Part shown: piece after piece, positions 1,543 to 31,013 of the stretch
Layout: each line of letters begins with the position of its first letter
Position numbering within the stretch: the stretch's first letter is position 1
NCBI GenBank assembly: GCA_028700115.1
Contig: JAQVTI010000011.1
Location: 1 to 32,000, forward strand
Direction: 5' to 3'
DNA length: 32,000 bases
Origin: Candidatus Iainarchaeum sp.
GTDB taxonomy: Archaea > Iainarchaeota > Iainarchaeia > Iainarchaeales > CSSED10-239
Notes under the pieces: generated by a model
The model's input: the letters and a program-made list of their open reading frames with translations, nothing else
The model's database searches: none
Told to the model about the DNA's origin: nothing
Made by a program: the position numbers and the translations under genes

Positions 1543-1848
1543 ATTTAATTATATTATTTGTTGGACACAAAATAATTTTTTAAAATTTTTTAATAATATA
1601 TTTATTTAAAATAAATCTTTATTAATAAAAATATTTAAAAAAATATTAATTTTTATTATAAATTTATAGTTAAAAAAGTATATTTTTATTAAGAAAGTAT
1701 ATATAAACTTATTTGTACTATATAATATATAATAGTTAACTTATTACAATTAATAATTATTGTTATTTGTATAAAAATAAAATTTTGATTAAAAATATAA
1801 TTTTTAAAATTTTTTTAAATACATAAATTAAAAAAAGAGGTTTTTAAT

Positions 1849-4317
1849 ATGATAAAAATTGATTTAAATAATACTAATAAGCAAGAACTTTTAAAAGTTT
1901 TAGAAAAACAAATATCTTCTCCTTCAAGATATATTATATCCCCAATAGATATTTCTATTTTAAAAAAACATAGAATTGATGTTAAAACATTTGCAAAAAA
2001 ATTAAAAGAAGTAAAAGCAAATTATACTGTTTTAAAAGGTCTTGGTTTTAAAGCAAAAACATTAAAATCAGCAGGATTTATTTTAAATGATTTAAAACAA
2101 GTAGGATTTGATGCAACTAAATTAAGAGAGCTTGATTTTAATGCACAAGAATTATATACTGCAGGATATTTGGCAAAAGATTTAAGACAAGCGGGGTATA
2201 CTGCAAGAAGACTTAAAAAAGTTGGGGTTAATTTAAAAGATTTAAAACAAGCAGGATATTTAGCTAAAGAAATTAAAAATGCAGGATATTCTGCAAAGCA
2301 AATTTTAAGTGTAGGATTTACTATTAAAGATTTAAAAAAATCTGGTTTTACTGCTTCTCAATTAAAAAAGATAGGTCTTTCTGCAAAAGAATTATATAAT
2401 GGAACATATTCTTTAATAGAACTTAGAAAAGCAAAATATTCTATTATAAAATTAAAAGAAGCAGGATTTACAGATGCAGAACTTGGGATTGTAAAAAAAG
2501 TAAAAAAAGAAAAAACTGAAAAAAAAGTAAAAAAAGTAAAAAAAGAAAAAACTGAAAAAAAAGTAAAAAAAGTAAAAAAAGAAAAAACTGAAAAAAAAGT
2601 AAAAAAAGTAAAAAAAGAAAAAAAAGAAATTATTGTTAAAACAGATTCTAAAAATAAAAAATTATTTATAATTGAAATAAATAAAGAAAATTTAAAAAAA
2701 TATAAACCAATAGAATTAATTAAAGGAAAAGTTAATGCAGAATCTTTAAAAAAGAAAAACTTTTCTGCATCTGATTTAAAAAAATTAGATTTTTCTGCAA
2801 AAGATATTTATTTTTTAGGATATCTTGTATCTGATCTTAAAAAAGCTAATTTTTCTTTGAAAGATTTTAAAGAAGCAGGAGTTTCTATTAAAGAATTAAA
2901 AGAAATTGGATATCTTCCAATTGATTTAGTAAAATTATATGATACAAATAGTATTTTATATGGAGAATTTGACGCAAAAGATTTAAAAAATGCAAAATTT
3001 AATTCAAAAAAATTAAAAGAATATGCATATACTGCAAAACAATTACATGATGCAGGATATAATTTAAAAGATCTTTTAAAGGCAAATTATAAATTTAAAG
3101 ATATTCTTGCTTTAGGATATACAATTAAAGATTTAAGGAAGCATTATACTTTAAAAAAATTATGTAATCTTGGATATTGTTTACAAGATTTTAAAGAAAT
3201 ATTTACAATAAAAGAATTAATTGATGCAAATTTTACATTACAAGAATTAATTAATGCAGAATTTGATTTAAAAGAGCTTATTAATAATTTTAAAATTAAA
3301 GAATTTTATTTAATTAATTTTTCTGCAATTAAACTTTTTGAAAATGGTGTTTCTTTAGAAGAATTAAAAGAAGCAGGATACAATATAAAAGAATTAATTG
3401 CATTAGAACCTATACAAGAACCTTTAGAAGAAAAACAAAGTTATTCTTTAGAAGAATTAAAATATATGAAATATTCTATAAGTGAACTTTTAGAAATGGG
3501 GTATACTGTTTTAGATTTAAAAAATTCAGGATATTCTGCAAAAGAATTAAAAGTAGAAGGAGTTACTTGTAGAGAATTAATTGAAGTAGGATTTGATATA
3601 AGAGAACTTCATTTTTTAGGATGTACTTTAAAATATTTTATAGAATATGGATTAAATTTAATAGATTTAAGAAATTCTGGATTTAATGCTTTAGAATTAC
3701 ATTTAGAAGGATATTCTTTATATGATCTTAGAATGGCTGGGTTTTCTGCAAAAGAACTTCTTCACATAGGATATACTGCAAAACAATACCATTCTGTAGG
3801 ATATACTGCAAAAGAACTTTATGAAATTGGATTTAGTATTTCTAGTTTAAGATTTGCAGGATATAAAGCAAAAGAATTAACAGGAATTGGAATTTCTATA
3901 AATGATTTTTATTTAGCAGGATATTTAGCTAAAGAAATGGCACAAGCAGGATATAAACCAATAGACCTTAAAGGAAATTATTCTGCAAAAGAGTTAAAAC
4001 AAGCAGGATTTGATGTTGCATCTATGAAAAAAGCAGGATTTTCTGCAAAAGAGTTATATGATGTTGGGTTTTCTGCAAGACAACTTCATTATGGTGGATT
4101 TTCTGCAAAAGAACTTTATGAAGTTGGAGTAGGTATAAGAATGTTAAAAGTTATACATTATGCTGCAAAAGAATTAAAAGAAATTGGATTTACTGCCTTA
4201 CAATTAAAAAAAATTGGATATAACCTAGAACAATTAAAAGAAGCAGGATATTCTTTTACTGAACTTAAAGATGCAGGTTTTTCTTCAGAAAAGATTAACA
4301 GACTTCCTAATAAATAG
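1849..4317 (+). CDS. 822-aa decapeptide-repeat protein (consensus L-K-x-A-G-[FY]-S-A-K-[DE]), possibly a pentapeptide-like beta-helix; no signal peptide
   Basis: SD GAGGT lies 8 nt upstream of the ATG. Residues 62-211 form 15 repeats of exactly 10 aa with no indel. Residues 300-815 hold about 50 more. The two blocks are separated by a Lys-rich linker. Confidence 0.9.
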   Translation: MIKIDLNNTNKQELLKVLEKQISSPSRYIISPIDISILKKHRIDVKTFAKKLKEVKANYTVLKGLGFKAKTLKSAGFILNDLKQVGFDATKLRELDFNAQELYTAGYLAKDLRQAGYTARRLKKVGVNLKDLKQAGYLAKEIKNAGYSAKQILSVGFTIKDLKKSGFTASQLKKIGLSAKELYNGTYSLIELRKAKYSIIKLKEAGFTDAELGIVKKVKKEKTEKKVKKVKKEKTEKKVKKVKKEKTEKKVKKVKKEKKEIIVKTDSKNKKLFIIEINKENLKKYKPIELIKGKVNAESLKKKNFSASDLKKLDFSAKDIYFLGYLVSDLKKANFSLKDFKEAGVSIKELKEIGYLPIDLVKLYDTNSILYGEFDAKDLKNAKFNSKKLKEYAYTAKQLHDAGYNLKDLLKANYKFKDILALGYTIKDLRKHYTLKKLCNLGYCLQDFKEIFTIKELIDANFTLQELINAEFDLKELINNFKIKEFYLINFSAIKLFENGVSLEELKEAGYNIKELIALEPIQEPLEEKQSYSLEELKYMKYSISELLEMGYTVLDLKNSGYSAKELKVEGVTCRELIEVGFDIRELHFLGCTLKYFIEYGLNLIDLRNSGFNALELHLEGYSLYDLRMAGFSAKELLHIGYTAKQYHSVGYTAKELYEIGFSISSLRFAGYKAKELTGIGISINDFYLAGYLAKEMAQAGYKPIDLKGNYSAKELKQAGFDVASMKKAGFSAKELYDVGFSARQLHYGGFSAKELYEVGVGIRMLKVIHYAAKELKEIGFTALQLKKIGYNLEQLKEAGYSFTELKDAGFSSEKINRLPNK
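2491..2625 (+). repeat. perfect 36-bp tandem repeat (3 full copies plus 1 diverged partial) inside the repeat-protein gene
   Basis: The unit gtaaaaaaagtaaaaaaagaaaaaactgaaaaaaaa occurs at 2491, 2527 and 2563, with a partial copy from 2599. It encodes VKKVKKEKTEKK three times. Confidence 0.95.
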
Positions 4318-9074: not shown

Positions 9075-10832
9075 TTATCTAGCACCTGCACCTCCACCAC
9101 CCATACCTCCACCAAATCCTCCTGCTGAACCACTACTACCTGAACCTGATATAGATCCATTAGATAGTGATGTGTAGGTTATACTTGTTGTATATGTTGC
9201 TAAAAACATCATGTTTGTGGTGTTACTTGACACATTTAGGTTGTGTGCCTTGATTATTTTGTTAACTTTCTTTGCACTTCCAAAAGCAGTTGCATAAACT
9301 ATATATTTTTCCCATAAAATTACATGTCTTGGAGGATATTTTTTAATTTGAGAAAAATCTGTTATATATCTATTAAAATTCATCCATTTTAGATTAAGAA
9401 CTCTGTTTTTCTTTGTAAATCTATTACTTAAAAAAGTACTTCTATCTTTGTATACTAATTTTTGAAAAGTTGTAAATATTTTTAGATAGATGCTAATTAT
9501 AAAAATATAAATCATAGGAATTGTCATGTATGCTATTTCAGGAGCTATTAAGTTTGTTTTACTAAAAATTAATGAAATAAATATTATATATATTGCAATA
9601 TAGCCAAAAAATAATAATGAAAAATAAATATTTCCTTTTTTCTCAAATAATTCCTGTTCTGTTTTCCAGTTTTTATAATATTCAAAAATTTCTTTTTGAA
9701 CTTTTTTAAATTCTAAATCCATTACTAGATTAAATTTATTTTTTGTAAGGTTATATCTGTTGTTAATCATTTTTTTAGTTATGTAATTGTATAGTGACTT
9801 ATAAGCACTGTTTAGAATATCTATTTTTTTATTAGTTTTAATTAAAATTAAATCATCATTTTTATCTTTTTCAAAATTTAAATATTTTTGATTAACTAAA
9901 TCCATTATAATTGATCCAAACCAATATTTTGTAAATCTACCATTTGCAAAATAATTTGCTTGTATAGGATCGTGTTTAGAAGGTAAATCTCTTTCATATT
10001 CTCCAAAGTAATTTACTTCTTTTTTAGAATATTCTTTTCCAAAAAATCTCCAAATTAAATAAAAGCCAATAAACCCTATTAATGTGTATATTAATAAATA
10101 TATTTTTTTATGTTCTAGAACAAATAGACCTATGTTTAGTTTTTTTTTAAGTTTATTTTCAATTTTTAAAACATCTTTAGATGTATATTCTTTTTTATAA
10201 TTACTTTTTTGTGTAAAATATGTATTTGGAATAAGCATATTTATTTCAATATACTCATTTGATTTTACATTTTTAGAAATTGAAAGTATATTTTTACTTT
10301 CTTCTATTTTATAATTATCTTTATTAAAAACATGCATGAAATATGTTGTGTTGTTTATGTCTTCTGGAAGGATAATTTGTATATTTGTTTTTGTAGATTT
10401 ATTTGTTTTTTCTCCATATATCTTATAAAAGAATTGATGAGAATCATTAATATCTAAAATAGCATTTTCAATTGTATATTCAAAATAAGCAGTTATTTGT
10501 TCATTACTAAAATTTCCTTTTAGAATAAGTTCTTTTTCTCCAGAAATGGATTCATTTTTGTTTTTAAAAATAAACTCTGCATTCTTATCTTTTTCAATAT
10601 ACCCATTATATTCAGAAATTATTATATCATCTGGTTTTTGTATATATAGCTCTGTAAAACTGCCATTTAAGTAATAAGTTATAGCTTCATTTACAATTAT
10701 TTGTGTGTTTTCTTGTATATTATAAGTTATATTATAATTTTCTATTGAATAATATTTTGCAGAAACTTGTGGAAGAATTAAAGCTAAAGTAAATATTATT
10801 GTAATTATTAAAAATATACTTTTTTTATTCAT
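9075..10832 (-). CDS. DUF2207-like membrane protein (signal peptide, extracellular domain, TM cluster, Gly-rich C-terminal tail)
   Basis: The start is preferred at MNKKSIFLIITIIFTLALILPQVSA (10832) because it gives a canonical signal peptide. The tail is ..GSGSSGSAGGFGGGMGGGGAGAR. The family assignment is from memory of this architecture. Confidence 0.6.
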   Translation of the reverse strand: MNKKSIFLIITIIFTLALILPQVSAKYYSIENYNITYNIQENTQIIVNEAITYYLNGSFTELYIQKPDDIIISEYNGYIEKDKNAEFIFKNKNESISGEKELILKGNFSNEQITAYFEYTIENAILDINDSHQFFYKIYGEKTNKSTKTNIQIILPEDINNTTYFMHVFNKDNYKIEESKNILSISKNVKSNEYIEINMLIPNTYFTQKSNYKKEYTSKDVLKIENKLKKKLNIGLFVLEHKKIYLLIYTLIGFIGFYLIWRFFGKEYSKKEVNYFGEYERDLPSKHDPIQANYFANGRFTKYWFGSIIMDLVNQKYLNFEKDKNDDLILIKTNKKIDILNSAYKSLYNYITKKMINNRYNLTKNKFNLVMDLEFKKVQKEIFEYYKNWKTEQELFEKKGNIYFSLLFFGYIAIYIIFISLIFSKTNLIAPEIAYMTIPMIYIFIISIYLKIFTTFQKLVYKDRSTFLSNRFTKKNRVLNLKWMNFNRYITDFSQIKKYPPRHVILWEKYIVYATAFGSAKKVNKIIKAHNLNVSSNTTNMMFLATYTTSITYTSLSNGSISGSGSSGSAGGFGGGMGGGGAGAR

Positions 10833-10938
10833 AAATATCTTACTTTTATTATATAATATATGGCATATCGATTCATTTATAAACATTTCTTTGCTTGTAT
10901 ATTTATACAAGTTATAATTTGTTAAGAGGTATTTTTAG

Positions 10939-14304: not shown

Positions 14305-17300
14305 CTATTTTTTAAAATAAGATTCTTTTTTTTGTATAATATAAAAAGCACCAATAATTATAAATATATATAAAATTAACATCAAATTAGATTGTGGGCT
14401 TAAAGGTATATTAAAACCACTTGATTCACTTCCTGAATTTCCCCCTATATTTATATTCATAGGGTTTTGAGAAGTTGTACCTACAACTTTTCCATCTTCT
14501 CCTACTTGAAACATCATTCCGTCTTTAAAATCTGGATTAAATGGAATTAAATGTCCATTTTCTGTATACCAATTACCTGTGCTTGGATCATACCAAAAAG
14601 AACCATTTTTTCCTTGAGCAGAAAGTAAAGTTTCAAGTTCATCATTATATTGTAATCTTGGAACACCATCTTCTGCACTAAATTCAAAATTATGCTCTTT
14701 TCCATCTGCAGTTTTTATTATCATTCCATCTGGTGTTTCAATAATTTCATCAATTGCCTGATCAGTAATTATTTGTCCGGTTTCTTTATCAATTATTTTC
14801 ATCCTTTTTTCACATTCAGGAGGATCTCCTGTATAAAAAATAAATGTCTTTGTAGCTGTGTCGAAAATCTGGAAAGGACCAACATGTTCTAGTGCATCAT
14901 TCATTTCATCAGCTTTATTTTGAGCATCTGCACTATCTTTTTTACCTTTTACATCAAAATCTAATGCAAATTCTTCACAACCAGTTACCTCATTGTTATA
15001 ATTTACAACTTTTGTATCTAAATCTTCAATTTCAGATTGATGCATTGTATAAGTTTGTTCAACCCATAAAATATAACTATTTGTTTCTCCATTATATATC
15101 ATTTGTCCTCTTTCAAATTGAATAGCTATGTTTTGACCAACTCTTACATCTTGGTTATCAATTGGATACATTTTTGTAAATCTTTCTCCACCATAAACAG
15201 TAACTTTTGCAGCATTTCCTTTTGCTGATCTTCTAGGAACTCCTTCTGCTACAATCTCTATATTATTTTCAGATGTTTTTGGCATTATATCATATTGTGT
15301 AGTTGGGTTTGTGATATTTGTTGTTGTTAAAATTTTTGCAGAACCAAGATAATCTGTTAAAGAATTTCCTTGCATTGTAAGTCCTGTTTGTGATTCATAG
15401 TTTAGTTTAAAACAATCTAAAAATCCAACGTTTTCAATAGTTATATTTCCATAAGCATCCATTGTAAACAAAGGAACATTTGTGTCTGGAACTGGTATAT
15501 AACTTAGACTATGAGGAATTACTTTTGCAGGAATTCCTAAGTTAGTTGCAGTAAGTCTTACCCAGTCTTTGTGTTCTGAATCAATTATATTTTTAATAGT
15601 TCCATCTTCTGTTACAATTTCTATTTTTCCTTCATCTTTATCAATAACTAAAGTTTCATTTGTAGATGTATCTGTTAGATGTTCTACACCTTTGTCATTA
15701 TATGCACTTGCTCTACAAGTTGATTTTTCTCCAAGTTCAAAAAAATAAAGCATTCCTTTAACAGAAGCTGAAGTGTTTCCTATAGTTTCAAATCTAGATT
15801 GAACAATTGGGTTGTCTTTTATTTTTGTTTCTGCAAAATTTTCAACTTCTTTTGCAGCTTCACTTAAATTTTCTTTTAAAGTAGTTCCATCTGCCATGTT
15901 TGAAATATTTTTTTGAATTGCAGAAGCTCCGTTTGAAATTGCATCTCCTATTTTATTTTTAGGATCTTTTTCTATTCTTTCTTCTTCATTTTTAGAAACA
16001 AAAACATGTGTATAATAACCTTCTTCATCATCTACACAGTCTTGAACTTGTGGTGTGATTAATGTTTGAGGAATTAAATCTCCTAGAATAACTCCAAGAA
16101 TCATTCTGTGGCTTGGAGCAGAAATTGCATAATAAGCTAAATTACTTGTGATTGCAGAAACCATTCCTGCTCTGTAACTTTTTCCTGTCCATTTAGTTGT
16201 CCAACCAATAGGAACACCAATTAATTCAAGTTCATCTATTCTTTGGGAACATGTATCTCCATTATTTTTTGCATCAGTTAAAACTACTGTTTTATCATCA
16301 GTTTCTCCTGAGATTGATCCACCATAATCTGTATGATGAGAAAATGTAATTAAAGTTTTTCCTTCATCTTCTAGATTTTCTTCAGTTGTGTTTTCTAGTA
16401 AGTATGTAGGTACTGTAATTCCACCTGGAATACTATAAATTATTTGCATATCTTTAATAGGTTCTTGAGAAGAAACTTCTTCTATAGAAATATCTGTTTC
16501 TTCTAAATTTTCTTTTTGTGTTTCTAAGATCTTTTCTTTTAGAGCTGATTTTTCATAAGTTTGTTTTTCTAAAAGAGAAGAGTTTCCAAGTTTCACATAA
16601 CAATTATCATTACATCCGTAGTTTTCTGCATCTGTAAATAAAGCAACTTCATCAACTGTGCTTCTTCTAATATGTCCTTCTGTAATTTGTTTTATCCAAT
16701 CATCTACTGAATTTGTGAATTTAGAATCTACACTTTCAATTCCAAGTTTAGTCAAAGAAACCAAATAAAATAACATACTATTAAAATATTTTGAAAATAA
16801 ATCACCTTGATCAGAACCATCATTTACAAAGTAATCAATATATGCATCTTTGTAAATATCTCCATCTTCTCCGTGATTAATTAAAACTGATGTATATGTT
16901 TCTGGGATTTGATATGCACTATATTTACTTAGAGAATCTCCTATAAAAGGAAGAGATGCACCTGCTGTTTTCCATTCCCAATATGCCCAGTTTAGAGCAT
17001 ACGCATTTAGAGAATTTCCTAAAAGACTCATTGCTTGGTTTGTATGTTTCCCATTAACTGGAGCTTTCATTTGTTGGTTTATCCAGTTTATTCCTTTTCC
17101 AGAAACCCAGCCTTTATTGTTCATTACATCCATCATAGATGTATTTACTATACTTGCATCTTTAACCATTTTAGTTCCATCAGCAACATATGAATATGCA
17201 AGTTCAATTGGATCATATCCAAAATCTTTTGCATCTAATGGAGTTTCTTTTACTGGATACCATTTAAAATTTGCAAAACTTGGATCAACATCATCTAATT

Positions 17301-19296
17301 TAAAATCAGTTGCTTTTACTTGTTTCATTATTCCAGATTTATCTTGATATCCTATATAAATATTAGGGTTATTTGTATATTTGGAAAGATCTATTCTTTC
17401 TAAATATTCTCCCTTTGCCATATTAATTTCTTCTCTATAAACTGGTATTTTTTGTATTTTTCTAGTAACTCCATCAGAAAAAGTTACATCTACAGTTTCA
17501 GTTTTAACTGTTTTTGCACCCATTTCATACATACCTTTATCAGAATTATATTTAATTTCAAAAGCCTTATTTCCTCCACCAATATCTGTTATCTGTGAAG
17601 AGCTTGCTCCTGTTGTTGGTTGAACTTTGTTTGTCATAACAAGTTCTGTTTTTCCTGTAGTTGGATCTTTATAAAGTGTTTTTCTAGAAGTAATTATTGG
17701 ATTTTCATTTAAAGGTTTATCCCATTTAACAGCACTTTCTGTTAAATCATCAATTCTATTTGTTAAGTTTCTAACTTCTGTTGTTTGTTTCATTATAATA
17801 TCATAATCTGCACTTGAAAGATTTTTATAAATATCTCCTGCTTTAGAGTTTGGGTCTTCAATAATTTCTACTAATTTTTTTACAGCAGTATCATAATCTT
17901 TATTTTTTATTAAAGACTCTTGTATTGCTTGAGTCATTTTTAAATTATCTTGATATTTTTGTGCACTTTCAAATAAAACTCTTCTTTGTTGTTTTGTAAG
18001 TTTATCAAATTTTCCACCTTTTGAAAATTCTTTTGCAATTGTGTCTATATTTTTCTTTGAACTTAAAGCATTTGTATATGCTTTATATTCATCATATATA
18101 CCATATTGATCAACAACTTGTCTTATTTCTTTTTGAGTTGTTTTTAAATAACTTGTATAATTATCAATATTTTTTGAAGCATTTTTAAACTCAATTGATC
18201 TAGTTAAAGCCTTTAGAGGGTTGTCTCCTTCTGAAAGCATATTGTCAATAAATCCACCTTTTTTTGCATTTATCTTTTTAGAAATATCAAAACCTAATCT
18301 ATTTTTAGAAAAATTTCCAATATCCCCAAAAATCTTAGTTGCACCTTTCCATAAGAAAGGAGATGCTGAAGAAACAACTAAGTCTGCAGAGAAATATTGA
18401 TTAAACATTTTATCAAATAAAGAATAAACATTAATATAACAATTTTCACCTTGACAAGTAGTTTCCATACTTGCATTAAATGTTTGTGTTTTTATACTAT
18501 TTTCAATTGCATTTTCTAAAAGAACTTGAGATTTTTTCATTTCAAACTCAGTTGCATTTTCATCAAATTGAATACTTTTAATATATTCTAATTGTTCATA
18601 TGACATTTCAGAAAATATACCCATATCTTCACTAATTTCAAAATCTGCTTCTGGGTTTATTATATCTCCTGCTTCTTCTTTAATCTTATTAATACCTATC
18701 ATATCAAGCATATCTTTTCCAACAGATACAAATTCATCTTTAAAACCATTATTACCATTTTCTCTAAAAAGACCAACTTCTTCTAAATAACAAGGTTCAT
18801 TTTCATCTCCACTACATCTTCCAACTCTTAGAGTGTTTTCTAAATTTATACCATATGAAAAAGGGCCATAACATGCTTGACCTAAAAGTGCAGGCACTTC
18901 TAGAGGGTTAATTTCTTGATTTGGCATTTCTTGTTGCAGCACAACATCATTTGCCTTTGTGTCTTTATTTGTAAGTAATAAATCATTTTCTTCTAAAGTA
19001 TCTCTGTTTGTGTTTTCTTTTTGATCAGAACCAACTAAGTCTACTTTAAATCCAGAAACTAAAAGTTCATCCCATAATCTTTCTACACTTTCAGAATCTA
19101 GTTCTTGAGTAAAACACCCAGATCCAAAATCATCAATATTATTTATTTCTTCTAGATTAATAGAACAAGTTGAGTATAAAGTTTTATTTTCTTCTAATCT
19201 TGTTATATCTACATTAAATGCAAAAACTGAGTTTATAAACATTAAAAGAAAGAAAAAACTTATTAAATTAAAATATATTTTATTTTTATCAAGCAT
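14305..19296 (-). CDS. 1663-aa secreted giant surface protein with an N-terminal signal peptide and a C-terminal TM anchor; no recognisable domain
   Basis: The signal peptide is IYFNLISFFFLLMFINSVFA. The C-terminus is ..GGNSGSESSGFNIPLSPQSNLMLILYIFIIIGAFYIIQKKESYFKK. The sequence is non-repetitive, with many cysteines that often occur in close pairs. Confidence 0.9.
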   Translation of the reverse strand: MLDKNKIYFNLISFFFLLMFINSVFAFNVDITRLEENKTLYSTCSINLEEINNIDDFGSGCFTQELDSESVERLWDELLVSGFKVDLVGSDQKENTNRDTLEENDLLLTNKDTKANDVVLQQEMPNQEINPLEVPALLGQACYGPFSYGINLENTLRVGRCSGDENEPCYLEEVGLFRENGNNGFKDEFVSVGKDMLDMIGINKIKEEAGDIINPEADFEISEDMGIFSEMSYEQLEYIKSIQFDENATEFEMKKSQVLLENAIENSIKTQTFNASMETTCQGENCYINVYSLFDKMFNQYFSADLVVSSASPFLWKGATKIFGDIGNFSKNRLGFDISKKINAKKGGFIDNMLSEGDNPLKALTRSIEFKNASKNIDNYTSYLKTTQKEIRQVVDQYGIYDEYKAYTNALSSKKNIDTIAKEFSKGGKFDKLTKQQRRVLFESAQKYQDNLKMTQAIQESLIKNKDYDTAVKKLVEIIEDPNSKAGDIYKNLSSADYDIIMKQTTEVRNLTNRIDDLTESAVKWDKPLNENPIITSRKTLYKDPTTGKTELVMTNKVQPTTGASSSQITDIGGGNKAFEIKYNSDKGMYEMGAKTVKTETVDVTFSDGVTRKIQKIPVYREEINMAKGEYLERIDLSKYTNNPNIYIGYQDKSGIMKQVKATDFKLDDVDPSFANFKWYPVKETPLDAKDFGYDPIELAYSYVADGTKMVKDASIVNTSMMDVMNNKGWVSGKGINWINQQMKAPVNGKHTNQAMSLLGNSLNAYALNWAYWEWKTAGASLPFIGDSLSKYSAYQIPETYTSVLINHGEDGDIYKDAYIDYFVNDGSDQGDLFSKYFNSMLFYLVSLTKLGIESVDSKFTNSVDDWIKQITEGHIRRSTVDEVALFTDAENYGCNDNCYVKLGNSSLLEKQTYEKSALKEKILETQKENLEETDISIEEVSSQEPIKDMQIIYSIPGGITVPTYLLENTTEENLEDEGKTLITFSHHTDYGGSISGETDDKTVVLTDAKNNGDTCSQRIDELELIGVPIGWTTKWTGKSYRAGMVSAITSNLAYYAISAPSHRMILGVILGDLIPQTLITPQVQDCVDDEEGYYTHVFVSKNEEERIEKDPKNKIGDAISNGASAIQKNISNMADGTTLKENLSEAAKEVENFAETKIKDNPIVQSRFETIGNTSASVKGMLYFFELGEKSTCRASAYNDKGVEHLTDTSTNETLVIDKDEGKIEIVTEDGTIKNIIDSEHKDWVRLTATNLGIPAKVIPHSLSYIPVPDTNVPLFTMDAYGNITIENVGFLDCFKLNYESQTGLTMQGNSLTDYLGSAKILTTTNITNPTTQYDIMPKTSENNIEIVAEGVPRRSAKGNAAKVTVYGGERFTKMYPIDNQDVRVGQNIAIQFERGQMIYNGETNSYILWVEQTYTMHQSEIEDLDTKVVNYNNEVTGCEEFALDFDVKGKKDSADAQNKADEMNDALEHVGPFQIFDTATKTFIFYTGDPPECEKRMKIIDKETGQIITDQAIDEIIETPDGMIIKTADGKEHNFEFSAEDGVPRLQYNDELETLLSAQGKNGSFWYDPSTGNWYTENGHLIPFNPDFKDGMMFQVGEDGKVVGTTSQNPMNINIGGNSGSESSGFNIPLSPQSNLMLILYIFIIIGAFYIIQKKESYFKK

Positions 19297-19316: not shown

Positions 19317-19808
19317 TCATACAAAAATTATAAACAATATCATAGCGATTAATTTTGGAAAAATTATATTTATTATAATTAATATTAGACAAGCAATTGA
19401 AGTTGAAAATAATAATGGTAAAAAATTAATTTCTTTTTTAGACTTATTAAACTTATCATAAAATAAACTTATAATAAATGCAAATACTAGTAAAATACCT
19501 GCAATTAATATATTTGTTATAATTAATCTAAACAAATGTAATATTATAAAAAACAAACCTTCAAAGAAAGTATATTGAAAATCAATTGAAATTGTTGGAA
19601 TAAAATAAATTCCTAGAATTATTACTAATGAAACTAAATAAATAGTTACAAACATAGAAATTAAAAAACTTTTTTTCTTATTTATTTTTTTAAATAAAAA
19701 TTTAAATAAGTATACAAAAAGAATTATTGGTAAAGAAATTAATACACTAACTCCATATAGTTTTATAAAAAACCAAATATAATTAAATATTGTAGAAAGT
19801 ATATTCAT
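19317..19808 (-). CDS. 163-aa polytopic membrane protein (about 5 TM), immediately upstream of the giant gene
   Basis: Almost entirely hydrophobic helices. A 20-nt gap separates it from the giant ORF on the same strand. Confidence 0.7.
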   Translation of the reverse strand: MNILSTIFNYIWFFIKLYGVSVLISLPIILFVYLFKFLFKKINKKKSFLISMFVTIYLVSLVIILGIYFIPTISIDFQYTFFEGLFFIILHLFRLIITNILIAGILLVFAFIISLFYDKFNKSKKEINFLPLLFSTSIACLILIIINIIFPKLIAMILFIIFV

Positions 19809-19948
19809 AGTTTATCTTTTTAATTTATATTTTCTTAAATTTAAAATATATATTTTGTGTAAAATATATTTATATATATAAATTGAAACATTTATAAGCA
19901 TTATTATCTAAATATATTTGTAATTTTTATTAAAATATATATATAGGT

Positions 19949-20701
19949 ATGGAATTTATGAATAAATCTGATATTATTAGAAGAGAGAGAAGACACTATA
20001 GAAGATATGTAAATGGAAATATAGTGTATGAACCAGCTCCTGTTGATGGGCATAAAGAAAGTACTTATGATAATAAGTTTAAAAATAATTATAAAATGAA
20101 AAAAGAAGAAGGAAGAATTACAAGTCTTGCTGAATTAGCTGATGAAAATATAAAAACAAAGTTTCCTAAAAAAGATCAAGTTATTGAAAAAACTTTACAT
20201 GAATTATCAGATATGATAAATCCTGATTCTTCAGAAATTGCAGATGCTTTATATAATCAATTTAAGAATACTGCATTAAATATTAAACAACAAGAAATAA
20301 AAAAAGCAATTGATAATAATAAACATTTTAGAGCAAGTAGTGATCAAAATAAAAATTTAGAAATAAAAGATATAAAAGCAGTTGTTGAAGATGTTTATGT
20401 TCAAGTTGAAAAAGAAGCAATCAAGAATAAGTCTATAGAAAAGGATAAAAGTGATGTAAAAGAAGCAATCACAAAAGAAATTTCTAAAGATAAAAATAAA
20501 TCTTTTAAAAAAGAAGAACCAAAAGAAGAAAAAACTTCTATAAGATCTAGAAAAAAATCTATAGAAAAAGAAGAAGTTAAAGAAATTAAACCTTCTAAGA
20601 AAAAAGAAAAAGTTTCTGGAAATGATCTTTTTGGTGATAATGATTTAGATTTAGATGATAATGATTTAGATTCTGATGATGATTTAGGACTTAAATTTTA
20701 A
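19949..20701 (+). CDS. 250-aa K/E-rich, probably disordered protein with a strongly acidic C-terminal tail
   Basis: It has an Arg-rich N-terminus (IIRRERRHYRRY), long KE-rich tracts and the tail ..GNDLFGDNDLDLDDNDLDSDDDLGLKF. Confidence 0.6.
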   Translation: MEFMNKSDIIRRERRHYRRYVNGNIVYEPAPVDGHKESTYDNKFKNNYKMKKEEGRITSLAELADENIKTKFPKKDQVIEKTLHELSDMINPDSSEIADALYNQFKNTALNIKQQEIKKAIDNNKHFRASSDQNKNLEIKDIKAVVEDVYVQVEKEAIKNKSIEKDKSDVKEAITKEISKDKNKSFKKEEPKEEKTSIRSRKKSIEKEEVKEIKPSKKKEKVSGNDLFGDNDLDLDDNDLDSDDDLGLKF

Positions 20702-20720
20702 TTTTATAAAAATTAAAAAA

Positions 20721-21506
20721 TTAATCATTATAAATTTTACAATTTAATTTTTCTAATTCTTTTTGAGCTATGCTTTTATTAGCTGGCCAAATTGCAAAAG
20801 TTGAAGTTATTTCTAATTCAGTTTCATCTCTACCTTCTTTTGCAGTAAAAGTTAAAGGAACAGAAGAAGCATGTATATCATTTGCTTTTGAAATAACTTC
20901 TCTTATATCATTATAATTTAAAGGATCGCATAAATAATATTTTGAAAGACCCATATTTATATCATTTAATTTATAGGTTTTATTAGAATCATTTTCTGAG
21001 TTTTCAAAATCAGTTATTTTTAACATAATATATTCAAATTTTTGATCATTTGTATTATATAAATAAAAAGTAAAATCATAACTAGGAAGAGGCATCATAA
21101 CTGATTTTATTGTGTGAAATAAATTATATTTTGCAATATCATCAGGATTTGACACATCTGGATTTGGAATATCTTCATCTATTGGATTAAACATATAATT
21201 TAAATCACCAGAACCTATATGTTTATCAGGATAAAAATCTGTTTTTACTGCTGTCATTAGATAATCAATTTCTTCACTTTCAAATATGTTTTTATTATAA
21301 TCTAAAGGAATTTCTGAATAAAATATAGTTTTTAAAGCAGAATTTGAATATTCTTTAAAATATAAATTATTTATTGCAAGATCTACTCTATCTCCATAGC
21401 TTGCTGAATATTTAAAAAGCATTACAGTTAGAACTATAATTATTGTTAAGAAAAATAAAGCATCTGTAATTGCAGCTTGTGCTTTTTGTCTTTTTAATTT
21501 ATTCAT
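20721..21506 (-). CDS. pilin-like protein with class III signal peptide (261 aa)
   Basis: The N-terminus is MNKLKRQKAQAAITDALFFLTIIIVLTVMLF. It is the last gene of the pilus-like operon. Confidence 0.75.
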   Translation of the reverse strand: MNKLKRQKAQAAITDALFFLTIIIVLTVMLFKYSASYGDRVDLAINNLYFKEYSNSALKTIFYSEIPLDYNKNIFESEEIDYLMTAVKTDFYPDKHIGSGDLNYMFNPIDEDIPNPDVSNPDDIAKYNLFHTIKSVMMPLPSYDFTFYLYNTNDQKFEYIMLKITDFENSENDSNKTYKLNDINMGLSKYYLCDPLNYNDIREVISKANDIHASSVPLTFTAKEGRDETELEITSTFAIWPANKSIAQKELEKLNCKIYND

Positions 21507-21529
21507 ATTTTTTCAAAATTTATTTTTAT

Positions 21530-22087
21530 TTATTCCCATACAGCAACATATAGCCTTACAGGAACTGCATGATATTCTATTTGTAAATTAATAGGGTAAA
21601 CATAAACTAAGACTTTATGTTTTTCATCTTGGGTTTTTACTTTTGTTTTAAATTTATCTAAATTTTTAGAAGTATTTGGACAGTAAAATATATTTTGTTC
21701 TGAATTTGGATCATATATATTTTCATCTAGAACAATTATTTGTGTATTATCTTCATCATTTGTTAATAGAAATTCTAAATCTACCTCATTGTAATTATCT
21801 AAATCTTGGGGTAGGTCTATTAAAAAGGCAGTCCAGTTTCTGTTTGTGTTTACTTTATTACATATGTTTGTAAAATGATTATAATCTATTATAACTGGTT
21901 CTGATCTTAAAGTCATAGAAATATCTATTGCATCTTGATGTAAATCAAAGTTTTGAGTTTCTGTTTTATAATTATTATATGTGCTTAAAAATACTGAAAA
22001 AAAAATTAATAGACCTATGAATATAGGTATTAGACTTGGAAGATCATCCCCTATTGCACCAATATAACCTTTTTGTTTTTTTTTCAT
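21530..22087 (-). CDS. pilin-like protein with class III signal peptide (about 185 aa)
   Basis: The start is preferred at MKKKQKGYIGAIGDDLPSLIPIFIGLLIFF (ATG 22087), which overlaps the upstream gene's end by 9 nt. Confidence 0.7.
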   Translation of the reverse strand: MKKKQKGYIGAIGDDLPSLIPIFIGLLIFFSVFLSTYNNYKTETQNFDLHQDAIDISMTLRSEPVIIDYNHFTNICNKVNTNRNWTAFLIDLPQDLDNYNEVDLEFLLTNDEDNTQIIVLDENIYDPNSEQNIFYCPNTSKNLDKFKTKVKTQDEKHKVLVYVYPINLQIEYHAVPVRLYVAVWE

Positions 22088-22094
22088 ATTTAAT

Positions 22095-22763
22095 CTAACC
22101 ATTATTAGGTTCATTATATTCATTTATACAAATATCTACAGACTTACAACTTACATCTTCAAACATAGAATCATCGCAAACTATCTTTTTACATGTAAGA
22201 ATACCATTTTGTTTTGCACAAGGCAATATATAATAATTGTCTTGTCCTTCTATTTTATTTTTGATTAGAATAAGAGTAGAATCATTACTTTTTACTCTTA
22301 ATGTATCATATATTCCATAATCTTGTTTAGAACTCCAATTACTACTATTATCATATGGATGCTCTGCATTATAAAAGGTAAAATCTCCATTAAAATCTAT
22401 ATCATATGCACCATATATTTTATCTTGTTTTTGATTTAAAATAGATATGACTAGTTTTTTATTATAATTATTTTCTGGATTTTCTTTTTCAAGTTCCATA
22501 ATATTTAGGACATATGCTTTGTTAAATGTAGTAGTTGAGCTTTGTCCACTTTTAATTCTTGTTGGGATATCTATATATTTGATAGAGCAATAACTCTCAC
22601 TATCTGTAATTAATTTAATATCTCTACCTATATTATAAGCTAATTCATAACTTTGTCTAGTTTGTAGATTTGAATTTACTGTATTCATAAAAAAAAGAAT
22701 AATTGCAGCAATTGCTGTTGCAAATAAAAGCATATTAAGTTTTGATAAAGCAAATTCAAACAT
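22095..22763 (-). CDS. pilin-like protein lacking a charged leader (222 aa, Cys-rich C-terminus)
   Basis: MFEFALSKLNMLLFATAIAAIILFF begins directly with the hydrophobic segment. Seven Cys are present, six of them in the last 40 residues. Confidence 0.65.
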   Translation of the reverse strand: MFEFALSKLNMLLFATAIAAIILFFMNTVNSNLQTRQSYELAYNIGRDIKLITDSESYCSIKYIDIPTRIKSGQSSTTTFNKAYVLNIMELEKENPENNYNKKLVISILNQKQDKIYGAYDIDFNGDFTFYNAEHPYDNSSNWSSKQDYGIYDTLRVKSNDSTLILIKNKIEGQDNYYILPCAKQNGILTCKKIVCDDSMFEDVSCKSVDICINEYNEPNNG

Positions 22764-22778
22764 TTTTTAATCACTAAT

Positions 22779-23393
22779 TTATTTTTTTCTTAAAAGACAA
22801 ATTTGTATATTACTTGAATTTGTATTTGTCTTTTTAAACATTCTATATTTTCCAGGAGGAAGACCTATTGGAGATCCATCAGATGAATCTTTTGGATTCC
22901 ATACTTGCCATAAATCTTCAGATATTTCATCTTCAGATAAGCATTCATCAGGAGTTGTTGCAAAATTTATAGTTGTTGGAAGATGTGTGCAGATTGGTTC
23001 AATTGGATATTTATAATCAAAAGTATCTTTATCTTCATAAGTATATTCTAATAATAAACAACTATCTCCCCCACCACAATAAGTTCCGCATTTTCCTTTA
23101 TCATCATATGCATTAAGTCTTACATATTCATATCTTTGATTAAAACACGCTTTTGTATCTAAAGATATATTTCTAATTACTAGATCTGAGCCTAAGACAA
23201 CATCTCTTAGAGAAGAATTAAAATTACTAAGTTCTTCTTTTTTATCTCCAAGGCATGTGCTTTGTTGTAAATTTTTAAGAGCATAAGTTCCTGCTAGAAT
23301 AACAAAACCCATAATTATGATTGCAACTAGAAGTTCAAAAGGAGCACCTATTTGTGCTTTTTGTTTATTATATTTTTTTTTAACAAATATCAT
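22779..23393 (-). CDS. Cys-rich pilin-like protein with class III signal peptide (204 aa)
   Basis: The N-terminus is MIFVKKKYNKQKAQIGAPFELLVAIIIMGFVIL. There are eight Cys, including GKCGTYCGGGDSC. Confidence 0.75.
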   Translation of the reverse strand: MIFVKKKYNKQKAQIGAPFELLVAIIIMGFVILAGTYALKNLQQSTCLGDKKEELSNFNSSLRDVVLGSDLVIRNISLDTKACFNQRYEYVRLNAYDDKGKCGTYCGGGDSCLLLEYTYEDKDTFDYKYPIEPICTHLPTTINFATTPDECLSEDEISEDLWQVWNPKDSSDGSPIGLPPGKYRMFKKTNTNSSNIQICLLRKK

Positions 23394-25390: not shown

Positions 25391-27631
25391 TTAAAATATC
25401 ATATTTGCAAGAATTGTTGTAATTATAAATAATATTGTTGCAATTGGTAAAGTTCTTGCAATATTTAATTTAGCAAGAGTAATGTTGTCTTGTTCTATCA
25501 TAGTTGTAAAAAATGTTATAATGATTACAACTTGAATAACATAGATTGCAACAATTATTAAAAAGGCTGTAGGAGAAGCAAGTTGAGAAATTACAGTAGT
25601 ATCAATTGAACCCATACTACTAATTGAACTTGCATTAACATTTACACCAATTGCACTAACCCCATCTTTTACACCTTCAATTGCAGAAGTCATATCTTCC
25701 ATTGTATTACTGTTTGCAATTGAATAAAGTGTAGAAATTACAATTTTTTGAAGAGCTGTAGTTATTCCTAAAACTATAGGGGCAATAAATTTAGACATGC
25801 TTTTTAGAGTTGTTGTTACAGAACTAATTAAGTCTCTTAACATTTTAGAAACTTCATCAGTGTTTCTTAACTGCAGAGAGTATGACATTAATGTTTTTGC
25901 AGCAACTGAAACTCCTAACTGAACAGAATCTACTAAAAGTCTCATAGCTGAATTAATAAGATTAGAAGGATTATTTTTAAGAGCACCATAACTTGGATCA
26001 AACAAAGCTGAATTTAAATTAAGTCCTAAAACTCTTATGTTATCAATTGCTTTTCCAAATATGTTTTTAGAAATTAAAGCTTTTGGTAAAAAGTTTTTTG
26101 TATGACTTAAAGCATCTTCAATTGGTTTGTTTTCACCAAGTCTACTTGCAATTACATATAGTGCATCTTTAAATTCGTCTTCCATTTTTTCAGTTTCTAA
26201 TTGTATTTCTCTTTTATATTTACTTTGAGAATATAAGACTATAGAAATTAATAAACTAATTAAGATTAACATTCCATAAATTATATAATGAGGAGTAATA
26301 TCATTTTCTGATCTTGCCCAAAACTCTTGTTCTGAAGCACATTTAAATTCAGAATCTGCTGCTTTTTCAACTTGTTCTGCTTTTGTACAATAAAAATCTG
26401 CTTCACTTATTTCTTGACTATCTGTAATATAACCAGATTGAATAAGTATACTTTTTTTAGTTTGACCAAACTCAGATTGTAAAAATACACTTCCTGCAAT
26501 TAAAATTACACTTACTATAATTATTAAAATACCTATATGTAAATGAGCTTTTCCTATTTTTATTGTGTTTTTAGGAGGAAGCTTTGGGTAATTGTCTGGT
26601 ATTTTAGGAGGTCTGTAAGTAGAAGGTTTGTTTCTTATTATCTTTTTTGCATAAAACAAACAACCTATAGGAATAATTATATTATATATTAAAATTAAAT
26701 AAATTGGTTTTGCAAGAGCAGAACCTGAAAAAGCAGAACCAACTGGTAGAACAATAATTAAAAGTAAAGGAAGTAATACCCCTAAATAAAAAATACCCAT
26801 TGCTGGTTGTGCTAAACTTCTTGCATAATCTTCTAGTTTTTCTTTTATGGATTTTAAAGTCTCAGACATTGTTTGATCTAAGATTTGATATCTTTTTGCC
26901 TCTGAGTTTTCTATAACAGAAGACCTTATTTTCATTAAAGCTTTTTTAAACTCAGTAGAAACTTCTCCCCATTTATAGGCAAGTTCATCTATTCCTTCAG
27001 AAACACTGTTTTTTATACCTACTTTAACTTCCCATAATAATTTTTTTAAATCATCTGCAATTTTTCCATGTCCATGATTTGAAGCAAACTCAATTGCTTT
27101 TTCTAAATTTGGAACTAATTTCATAGACATTATCATATATCCTAAAATTTCTGGAACAAAAGTTAATGCTAAAATTTTTTCAGATTGTACTTTTTTTAAA
27201 GGATAATTTTGAAAATTTATATAAATTATTATAAAAATAAATATTGGAAGAATAAAAGTAATTATAATAGGCATTATAATTATATCAAATAAAGAAAATA
27301 ATAAATCATAACCAAATAAATATATTAAATAACTAATAAGACCTGTAAGAAAAATACCAAAAAAAAGAATAAATTTTAAAGTAGCAGAATATTCTTTTCC
27401 AGATAAATCCCAATTAAGAAAATCAACTGCATTTTTTAAATCTGGTCTAAAAGAAGAATTATTACCAAGACTAGGAAATTTATTATATATTTTTTTACAA
27501 AAAATAACATAATAATTTTGTTTTTTTCTTTCTAATTTATTTATATTTTTAGAAAAATCTCTACTTTCTATAGATATTGAACTATATATTTTTCCAGGAC
27601 TTGTTTTTGGGGGTCTTATTATATCAGACAT
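25391..27631 (-). CDS. FlaJ/TadC/PilC-like polytopic membrane platform protein (746 aa)
   Basis: Two soluble helical modules (..PNLEKAIEFASNHGHGKIADDLKKLLWEVKVGIKNSVSEGIDELA.. and ..FKDALYVIASRLGENKPIEDALSHTKNF..IDNIRVLGLNLNSAL..) are each flanked by TM clusters. That is the duplicated T2SSF-type arrangement. It is the first gene of the pilin operon. Confidence 0.65.
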   Translation of the reverse strand: MSDIIRPPKTSPGKIYSSISIESRDFSKNINKLERKKQNYYVIFCKKIYNKFPSLGNNSSFRPDLKNAVDFLNWDLSGKEYSATLKFILFFGIFLTGLISYLIYLFGYDLLFSLFDIIIMPIIITFILPIFIFIIIYINFQNYPLKKVQSEKILALTFVPEILGYMIMSMKLVPNLEKAIEFASNHGHGKIADDLKKLLWEVKVGIKNSVSEGIDELAYKWGEVSTEFKKALMKIRSSVIENSEAKRYQILDQTMSETLKSIKEKLEDYARSLAQPAMGIFYLGVLLPLLLIIVLPVGSAFSGSALAKPIYLILIYNIIIPIGCLFYAKKIIRNKPSTYRPPKIPDNYPKLPPKNTIKIGKAHLHIGILIIIVSVILIAGSVFLQSEFGQTKKSILIQSGYITDSQEISEADFYCTKAEQVEKAADSEFKCASEQEFWARSENDITPHYIIYGMLILISLLISIVLYSQSKYKREIQLETEKMEDEFKDALYVIASRLGENKPIEDALSHTKNFLPKALISKNIFGKAIDNIRVLGLNLNSALFDPSYGALKNNPSNLINSAMRLLVDSVQLGVSVAAKTLMSYSLQLRNTDEVSKMLRDLISSVTTTLKSMSKFIAPIVLGITTALQKIVISTLYSIANSNTMEDMTSAIEGVKDGVSAIGVNVNASSISSMGSIDTTVISQLASPTAFLIIVAIYVIQVVIIITFFTTMIEQDNITLAKLNIARTLPIATILFIITTILANMIF

Positions 27632-29816: not shown

Positions 29817-31013
29817 ATGGAAATAAATAAAACAGAAATAGGAGTTTGTGCATTTGGACTAAAAACAGGTATTATTACTTTTGATGATAATATGAAAGAT
29901 GTTGTTAAAAAATATTTTGACAAAAATAAAAATATATTAAATAATAAAGATATTTTATGTATGACAGAAGCAGTTGTTGCAATTACTCAAAAAAATTTTG
30001 TAAATTTAGAAGATGTATCTATAGAAATTAAAAATAAATTAAATTTAAAAGAAAATTCTACAATTGGAATTGTTTTTCCAATATTTTCAAGAAATAGATT
30101 TTCAATGATTTTAAAAGCAATTGCAAAAACAGTTCCTTTAGGAAAAGTAATTATTCAATTATCTTTCCCAAGAGATGAACAAGGTAATCCTATACTTTCT
30201 AAAGATTTTTGTATAGATAATAATATTACTTTAGACGAAAAATTAGATTTAAAAAAATTAGATAATTTAGGAAAAAGATATTTGCATCCAGAAACAGGTA
30301 TGGATTATATTGATTTTTATAAACAAATTGTAGAAAAAGAATCAAAAAATGTAGAAATCTATCTTGCAAATAAACTAAATTACATAATTAATTCAAAACC
30401 AGATGGAATTATTTGTTGTAATGTTCATAATAGACAAAATATTTTAAATGAAATTAAAAAATTAGGTTATAAAAATATAATTACTTTACAAGATATTTGT
30501 TCTAATTCTTCTAAAAAAGAATATTCAGAATATGGACTTTTGGGGTCAAATATATTAGATCCAGAAAAAAATATATTAAAACTTGCTCCAAAAGATGGAG
30601 ATTTATTATGTGAAAATATTAAACAAATGATATTTGAAGAATTTGATAAAGATATAGAAGTATTAATATATGGAGACGGTGCCTATAAAGATCCAGAATC
30701 AGGAATATATGAACTTGCAGATCCAGTTTCATGTTTTGGATGTACAAAAAATATTAAAAATAAAAATAAAACAGGTGTTAAATCAAAATATTTAATGCAA
30801 AAACTTTATAGTCAAGGAAAAAATAAAAAAGAAATATTAGAATTTATAGAAAATGAAAAACAAAGAGTTTTAAAAGAAAATAATAAAAATGATTTTTCAT
30901 CAGAAGGAACAACTCCACGAAAAATAGAAAATTTAATATCTTCTCTTGCAGATTTAATTTCTGGTTCTGCTGATTCAAATACTCCTTTAGTTTTAGTTAA
31001 AAATTATCTTTAA
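29817..31013 (+). CDS. CofE-like (F420-0:gamma-glutamyl ligase family) protein, 398 aa
   Basis: Three segments align by eye with A. fulgidus CofE. NKDILCMTEAVVAITQKNFVNLEDV matches DGDVLVVCSTVISKAEGR. GLLGSNILDPEKNILKLAPKDGD matches NAGIDASN..LLLPPLDPD. SGSADSNTPLVLVKN matches GEGGDGIPAVVVRG. The protein carries large insertions relative to CofE. Confidence 0.5.
   Translation: MEINKTEIGVCAFGLKTGIITFDDNMKDVVKKYFDKNKNILNNKDILCMTEAVVAITQKNFVNLEDVSIEIKNKLNLKENSTIGIVFPIFSRNRFSMILKAIAKTVPLGKVIIQLSFPRDEQGNPILSKDFCIDNNITLDEKLDLKKLDNLGKRYLHPETGMDYIDFYKQIVEKESKNVEIYLANKLNYIINSKPDGIICCNVHNRQNILNEIKKLGYKNIITLQDICSNSSKKEYSEYGLLGSNILDPEKNILKLAPKDGDLLCENIKQMIFEEFDKDIEVLIYGDGAYKDPESGIYELADPVSCFGCTKNIKNKNKTGVKSKYLMQKLYSQGKNKKEILEFIENEKQRVLKENNKNDFSSEGTTPRKIENLISSLADLISGSADSNTPLVLVKNYL

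Follow-up and report, generated by a model that had tools for sequence, protein, structure and literature searches.

The window analyzed here is a 32,000-nucleotide (nt) stretch of contig JAQVTI010000011.1 (assembly GCA_028700115.1, positions 1 to 32,000 of the forward strand) from the archaeon Candidatus Iainarchaeum sp. An open reading frame (ORF) near its start, at 1849..4317 on the plus strand, encodes an 822-residue protein that consists predominantly of ten-residue units repeated in tandem. Three questions arise from this locus: to which family the repeat belongs, what fold its units adopt, and what such a protein might do in its host. The source genome is 965 kb long, in 47 contigs, 89% complete and ∼20% G+C. 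For its small-subunit rRNA, the archaeal model gives 1365 bits and the bacterial model 1078 bits, and a genome of the same genus is that of Candidatus Forterrea multitransposorum (CP045477.1), of the phylum Iainarchaeota (DPANN).

Architecture and repeat family

Using an iterated profile with dynamic-programming segmentation, we delineated 61 ten-residue units and 5 nine-residue units (residues 360–368, 429–437, 448–456, 477–485, and 697–705), i.e. ∼66 units, which make up at least 74% of the protein and display the consensus L-K-E-A-G-[Y/F]-S-A-K-E. The repeat span (nt 2032–4293) corresponds exactly to residues 62–815 and comprises two arrays. The N-terminal array (residues 62–211; 2032..2481) consists of 15 ten-residue units in an unbroken series, each of which begins with Leu/Ile and most of which have Gly-Phe/Tyr as residues 5–6. 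The C-terminal array (residues 290–815; 2716..4293) contains 46 ten-residue units and all five nine-residue units. Self-identity at lags of 10, 20, and 30 is 0.36, 0.31, and 0.37 for residues 62–211, and 0.28, 0.28, and 0.21 for residues 300–815; it is at most 0.12 at any other lag in both arrays. The first-pass annotation of this DNA, which described ∼65 strictly phased decapeptides and 15 consecutive units without an indel at residues 62–211, was therefore accurate in both respects.

The arrays are accompanied by three segments of a different nature. Residues 1–61 (1849..2031) form a lineage-specific N-terminal domain with the motif KQ[IL]xSPxR[YF]IISP...AK[KD]LK.V.AN.T. The two arrays are separated by a Lys-rich linker (residues 212–289; 2482..2715) harboring a 36-bp tandem repeat (2491..2623), which encodes (VKKVKKEKTEKK)n and was identified by Tandem Repeats Finder with 3.7 copies, 100% matches, and a score of 266. 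The 100% identity of these copies implies that the expansion is recent. Finally, a 21-residue non-repeat insertion, LIALEPIQEPLEEKQSYSLEE (residues 516–536; 3394..3456), interrupts the C-terminal array and is kept in all orthologues within the genus. The repeat had been described as Lys-rich and net positive. The protein does carry a net charge of +49, but this is unevenly distributed, with +24 in residues 212–299 (the linker region as scored) and +15 in the N-terminal array; the C-terminal array, at +3, is near neutral.

Against Pfam-A, the protein matches PF25296 ("Decapeptide repeat region") with 539.6 bits vs. a cut-off of 45 (E 4.2e-166), in 11 stretches across both arrays, and we regard it as virtually certain that it is a member of this catalogued family. 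The novelty implied by the first-pass annotation is thus lost, because PF25296 is the repeat found in DotG/IcmE. On sequence comparison, the archaeal repeat is homologous to the middle region of DotG/IcmE. The NCBIfam equivalog model for DotG/IcmE, NF033900, gives 472.6 bits vs. a cut-off of 750, and its best stretch is confined to the repeat region (profile positions 516–724 of 1008). When 5.8 billion proteins were searched by word index, the best matches listed were mostly middle regions of DotG/IcmE from Legionellales, 26–36% identical, and the matches listed also include some TrbI-less proteins and one dinoflagellate protein. The archaeal protein and Legionella DotG share the ten-residue unit xAGFSAKELK, and a gap-free alignment keeps it in register for more than 120 residues. 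IcmE/DotG (7MUC, 9NGV, and 9NGW) are also the only sequences in the PDB that contain the repeat (E 3e-80, or E 2e-125 with a three-unit profile). The family is much wider than these proteins, since 2213 of the 1.84 billion cluster representatives searched exhaustively with HMMER were matched at E ≤0.001, 292 of them at E ≤1e-30. These include giants of 3000–4000 residues, in which the repeat is inserted between secreted-type bacterial domains (TPS, MBG, and YDG; DUF4347, RCC1, Big_2, and fn3; or LamG and fn3).

Although the repeat is shared, identity of the archaeal protein as DotG was rejected. The TrbI/VirB10 domain (PF03743), which is C-terminal in DotG, gives no match even at E 10, and the C terminus lies just 7 residues beyond the last unit. 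The N-terminal transmembrane helix of DotG is also missing. No Dot/Icm or other secretion-system genes were identified in the 32-kb window, the NF033900 score is below its cut-off, and the host is an archaeon. In addition, the archaeal protein has an N-terminal domain of its own and a Lys-rich linker. The middle region of DotG differs in length among Legionella species and even strains (PMC6761968), whereas the number of units in the archaeal protein is fixed within the genus, as detailed below. The two proteins also differ in predicted location. Signal peptide, transmembrane helix, and lipobox were not detected anywhere in the 822 residues, and there is no hydrophobic segment (the 19-residue Kyte-Doolittle mean peaks at 0.94 over the whole protein). 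This absence of export signals shows a predicted cytoplasmic protein, in agreement with the earlier annotation. The repeat type is therefore already known, and what the protein adds is a stand-alone archaeal member, not a new kind of system.

Predicted fold of the repeat

The repeat was modeled using AlphaFold2 (AF2), both in the full-length protein and in residues 533–822 alone. For the full-length protein, the mean predicted local distance difference test score (pLDDT) is 78.3 (76–78 across the five models), and the model comprises 444 helical, 2 strand, and 376 coil residues. Its predicted template modeling score (pTM) of 0.34 is in line with segments joined by flexible parts. The pLDDT drops below 50, which denotes disorder, at residues 185–194, 215–273 (27–45, within the linker), and 520–531 (within the insertion). 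The N-terminal array has a pLDDT of 77–92, except for the units at residues 182–201 (block means 53–58), and the N-terminal domain is predicted as 3–4 helices (pLDDT 55–82). Residues 533–822 alone are modeled with a pLDDT of 92.3 and a pTM of 0.72, as 29 short helices, mostly of six residues. These helices recur in phase with the repeat, since positions 8–10 are helical in all 61 units and positions 1–3 in 58–60 of them, vs. 10 units for position 4 and 0–1 for positions 5–7.

Helix ends follow well-characterized rules. In a capping box, the N-cap residue pairs with N3, and in a Schellman motif a Gly at C' is accompanied by hydrophobic residues at C3 and C''. Independently of AF2, the unit itself carries what reads as these classical helix-end signals, with Ser/Thr/Asp/Asn at position 7 and Glu/Asp/Gln at position 10 in 49 of the 61 units each, and Gly/Asn at position 5 in 50. 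The six-residue helix of each unit would thus run through repeat positions 8–10 and then 1–3. The residue at position 7 would be its N-cap, with the acidic or Gln residue at position 10 (N3) completing the capping box. At the other end, Gly5 would be the C' residue, and Leu1 and Phe/Tyr6, at the C3 and C'' places of a Schellman motif, would form the hydrophobic staple. On the strength of the model, we consider it probable that the arrays are α-solenoids with one capped six-residue helix and one four-residue turn per unit, the units stacking continuously instead of winding into a β-helix of the pentapeptide type.

Stacked helices are also the hallmark of known α-solenoids, such as HEAT/ARM proteins and the designed helical repeats 8VD6 and 8CWY, the only kind of protein matched by Foldseek. 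The resemblance does not extend to the unit, which in known α-solenoids measures 30–40 residues with two or three long helices, compared with one six-residue helix every ten residues in the decapeptide model. Neither AF2 model has a resembling structure in the PDB as assessed by Foldseek (template modeling (TM) scores ≤0.23), the best matches being de novo designs; 8VD6, for example, was designed using ProteinGenerator (PMC12339374). Likewise, no model resembling the C-terminal array was found among the predicted viral structures of BFVD (TM ≤0.22).

The first-pass annotation had proposed another fold, a right-handed β-helix of the pentapeptide type, in which each decapeptide would contribute two pentads to a quadrilateral coil. 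As in the pentapeptide-repeat proteins Qnr, MfpA, and HetL, Leu1 and Phe/Tyr6 place a hydrophobic residue at every fifth position, and the NCBIfam models for Qnr and HetL give weak matches (E 1e-6 to 1e-4), far below their cut-offs. Four further points weigh against a helical solenoid. First, both AF2 runs used an alignment of only four closely related orthologues. Second, PF13599 (Pentapeptide_4) is matched, marginally, at 39.6 bits vs. a cut-off of 38, in one stretch at residues 60–108. Third, a β-helix has been predicted for DotG by Ghosal et al., whose Phyre2 analysis matched its repeats to the pentapeptide β-helices 3NB2 and 3DU1 (bioRxiv 10.1101/312009); the proposal is repeated elsewhere (PMC7511231), and the DotG repeats are termed "pentapeptide repeats" in the literature. 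Fourth, the repeat region of DotG is unresolved in cryo-electron microscopy (bioRxiv 10.1101/2025.06.23.660953), and the repeat fold therefore lacks an experimental structure.

The features of the unit itself argue in the other direction. Its period is 10 instead of 5, and the A(D/N)LXX signature of pentapeptide repeats is missing, as the earlier annotation, which gave it as A[DN]LxG, had already pointed out. A comparison with the Pfam pentapeptide families, which that annotation had suggested, gave a divided answer. The marginal PF13599 match has no counterpart in PF00805 (Pentapeptide), which is not matched even at E 10. Repeat position 9 is i−2 in the pentad centred on Leu and would point inward in a β-helix; of the 61 units, 34 have Lys/Arg there and 9 a small residue (Ala, Ser, Cys, Thr, or Val), a poor fit to the tightly packed core of pentapeptide β-helices. 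The combination of Ser/Thr/Asp/Asn-x-x-Glu/Asp/Gln with Gly is a helix-capping signature, and there is no pentapeptide protein among the Foldseek matches in the PDB. Finally, an AlphaFold prediction had been put forward as the way to distinguish a β-helix from a helical solenoid, and the model is all-helical, with 2 strand residues of 822 at a pLDDT of up to 92.3. Taken together, these observations leave the β-helix as a very unlikely fold for the arrays and favor the α-solenoid. The first-pass annotation had stated that a confident α-helical solenoid prediction would refute its β-helix and that a strong match to a well-characterised repeat family would remove the novelty; both outcomes were obtained, the first of them as a predicted fold.

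Conservation in the Iainarchaeota

In a six-frame scan of the source genome, 11 PF25296 matches score above the cut-off, and all of them lie within the ORF at 1849..4317. All 6 further genus members carry the gene; for the family as a whole, the figure is 18 of the 21 other genomes searched. The ORFs in the loci extracted from the family are 625–827 residues long, and one genome has a single weak match only. Orthologues within the genus share 54–97% pairwise identity and are collinear unit by unit. When 60 ten-residue units were compared, a single gap position was seen, in one of the seven sequences from the genus. Each unit is more similar to its orthologous unit (identity 0.60–0.61) than to non-orthologous units (0.305). 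This holds at all repeat positions, for which conservation between orthologues exceeds that between paralogous units, position 3 being the freest. At the nucleotide level, unit-to-unit identity within the gene averages 0.54, with a maximum of 0.83, and neighboring units are no closer to each other than distant ones. The collinearity of the orthologues, their single gap position, the excess of orthologous identity, and the diverged DNA of the units together indicate that the decapeptide array is old, has not been homogenised, and is under strong purifying constraint in both its number of units and its unit-specific residues. An old repeat maintained by selection is also what the first-pass annotation had deduced from the diverged DNA copies.

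The segments outside the arrays behave differently from one another. The 61-residue N-terminal domain is conserved in three genera of the family (here g1, g3, and g4), with the extended motif KKE[VL]..L.KQ[IL].SP.R[YF]IISP[IV]..S.L.K.KI....AK[KD]LK.V.AN.T. A profile of this domain has no relative in the PDB (the best match being Tho1, E 0.76), and a Pfam search with the N-terminal domains of 12 orthologues gave nothing below E 0.01. Lys-rich low-complexity segments are present in nearly all orthologues in the family, and they are unrelated in sequence and position. Some of them appear to be tandem-repeated themselves, as in loci L031 (residues 47–115) and L034 (residues 38–137). The long orthologues in the family are all net basic, with charges of +27 to +64. 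In the orthologues from genus g4 (L028, L032, L033, and L035–L037), the N-terminal array has ∼3 units and is followed by a Lys/Pro-rich segment, which shows that the length of this array varies between genera, although it is fixed within the genus.

We read the long protein as specific to this one family of DPANN archaea; outside the family the repeat is rarer. Of the 39 genomes first sampled from other families, 3 had a PF25296 match. A larger sample of the phylum gave 46 positives among 215 genomes, the source genome included; 28 of the 193 genomes from outside the family were positive, and those of their matches that were inspected lie in small proteins with short arrays. These small decapeptide-repeat proteins of 104–235 residues represent a second architecture in the phylum. 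They are encoded on the plus strand in L046 (851–1225), L047 (766–1287), L048 (948–1262), L049 (843–1217), and L050 (550–1257), and others are found in L038, L039, and L040. They resemble the 822-residue protein in the repeat itself, in their phylum of origin, and in lacking a signal peptide. They differ in having 7–20 units and no SPxR[YF]IISP domain; most of them display the N-terminal motif ..ARSLLAKGL[DN]ARRL.., and nearly all the C-terminal motif AGFSQ.QVN.AF.KK. A metagenome scan for further orthologues returned one 1-kb fragment only. We found no paper on the archaeal protein, and the genome paper on Forterrea does not mention it.

Possible function and genomic context

What might a cytoplasmic protein with these properties do? 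In bacteria, the repeat is found in the settings of a stalk or spacer. Together with the invariant number of units, this suggests that the two arrays could serve as a structural scaffold or spacer of fixed length, the surface of which would carry binding information specific to each unit. Because the family orthologues are net basic and nearly all have Lys-rich segments, the fast-evolving Lys-rich segment may tether the protein to a polyanion, be it nucleic acid or the acidic surface of a membrane. A fixed-length scaffold or spacer tethered to a polyanion is a possible function, although we hold it with limited confidence. The reading as a whole, in which a PF25296 protein would form a capped-helix solenoid and act as a scaffold with a polyanion tether, is one toward which we lean slightly.

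Genomic context contributes little. The neighbors in the window encode an esterase, a membrane-anchored DsbA-like protein, a CAAX protease, a GNAT protein, and a radical S-adenosylmethionine enzyme. The order esterase, repeat gene, DsbA-like, CAAX protease is held in the genus, and the DsbA-like/CAAX protease pair is also found in one genome of genus g5. In other genera of the family, the gene adjoining the repeat gene encodes a Na+/H+ exchanger or an ornithine/diaminopimelate (Orn/DAP) decarboxylase. Since these unrelated housekeeping neighbors change between genera, a functional operon was rejected, which counts against the scaffold proposal.

Alternatively, the protein might be primarily a nucleic acid-binding factor of the chromatin, nucleoid, or ribosome, the unit of which would be a helix-turn motif similar to those of eL13 or MerR. 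This would account for the net charge of +49 and its concentration in the N-terminal array and linker, as well as for the Lys-rich segments, reminiscent of histone H1 tails, in nearly all family orthologues. Several weak similarities point the same way. The NCBIfam model for archaeal L13e, NF008914, matches residues 151–178 (nt 2299–2382; E 3.9e-6), and Pfam Ribosomal_L13e matches related repeat proteins. There is a weak profile match to the MerR-type regulator GlnR, "LLEKGFNIKEIKQI", and a weak Foldseek similarity to the helix-hairpin-helix repeats of topoisomerase V. However, these similarities lie below family thresholds, with 26.4 bits vs. a cut-off of 96 for NF008914 and TM scores ≤0.18 for topoisomerase V. 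Moreover, the C-terminal array, whose 51 units account for two thirds of the protein, is electrically neutral, and the same repeat occurs in periplasmic and extracellular proteins, where there is no nucleic acid. Overall, a primary role in nucleic acid binding appears unlikely, and the tethered scaffold is preferred.

Membership in the eL13 family was examined separately and rejected. NF008914 is below its cut-off and covers residues 151–178 only, PF01294 is not listed, and the resemblance is at the level of a motif. A Pfam L13e search of the source genome gave no match, but control genomes likewise gave none. One Legionella DotG is named "L13e" in NCBI, and the unit resembles positions 67–88 of the Pfam L13e profile. 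These positions correspond to the GFSxxELKxAG region of eL13, a protein present in solved ribosome structures.

Export without a classical signal, for a role at the cell surface or across the envelope such as host-cell contact, is suggested by analogy with the periplasmic or secreted bacterial contexts of the repeat (TrbI/DotG, TPS, Big_2, and fn3), by the predicted symbiotic lifestyle of Ca. Forterrea (PMC5905446), and by the downstream genes for the membrane-anchored DsbA-like protein and CAAX protease in the genus and one g5 genome, but the lack of a signal peptide, transmembrane helix, or lipobox, the loss of synteny in other family genera, and the failure to identify a secretion-system gene in the window make it highly improbable.

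The gene is preceded by a 306-bp intergenic region (1543..1848, plus strand; 7.5% G+C), which has, in the sequence ...AAAGAGGTTTTTAATATG, a Shine-Dalgarno-like GAGGT motif 8 nt 5' of the ATG, at a start that is the same in the genus orthologues. As noted in the first-pass annotation, this region is free of ATG on the plus strand, but this is only mildly unusual, as ∼3.2 would be expected at this G+C content (P ∼0.025 by shuffling). Scans of the gene region for tRNA, Rfam families, promoters, and terminators revealed nothing relevant. Elsewhere in the window, a 1663-residue ORF on the minus strand (14305–19296) and six ORFs adjoining it (19317–23393), three of which (minus strand, 21530–23393) overlap or lie very close together, match nothing in Pfam at E 0.001. 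Two predicted membrane proteins of the DUF2207 type are encoded on the minus strand at 9075–10910 and 25391–27631, the second match being weak. A gene for a CofE-like F420-0:gamma-glutamyl ligase is found at 29817–31013 on the plus strand, in a DPANN genome of ∼1 Mb and minimal metabolism.

The significance of these findings lies in the repeat as much as in its archaeal host. The family is large, and it sits midway in a major virulence machine, as part of DotG, without an experimental structure; the literature that we found either proposes a pentapeptide β-helix for the repeat or leaves the region unresolved. If the α-solenoid is correct, the β-helix proposed for DotG, the stalk of the type IVB secretion system in Legionella, would be incorrect. 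The stand-alone archaeal proteins, which are soluble, devoid of transmembrane segments, and confidently predicted, would be practical material for deciding the fold, and the protein described here would be the easiest route to a first experimental structure for the family. For the archaea themselves, a gene among the largest in a genome of ∼1 Mb that is conserved throughout the family suggests a cellular role that has so far gone unrecognised. Our most far-reaching suggestion, which we offer tentatively, is that the decapeptide repeat is a natural α-solenoid of an as yet unsolved kind, with one fully capped six-residue helix every ten residues, and that, in the Forterrea family, it may provide a cytoplasmic scaffold of fixed length and position-coded surface, akin to a molecular ruler or a cytoskeletal element, tethered by a rapidly evolving poly-Lys segment.

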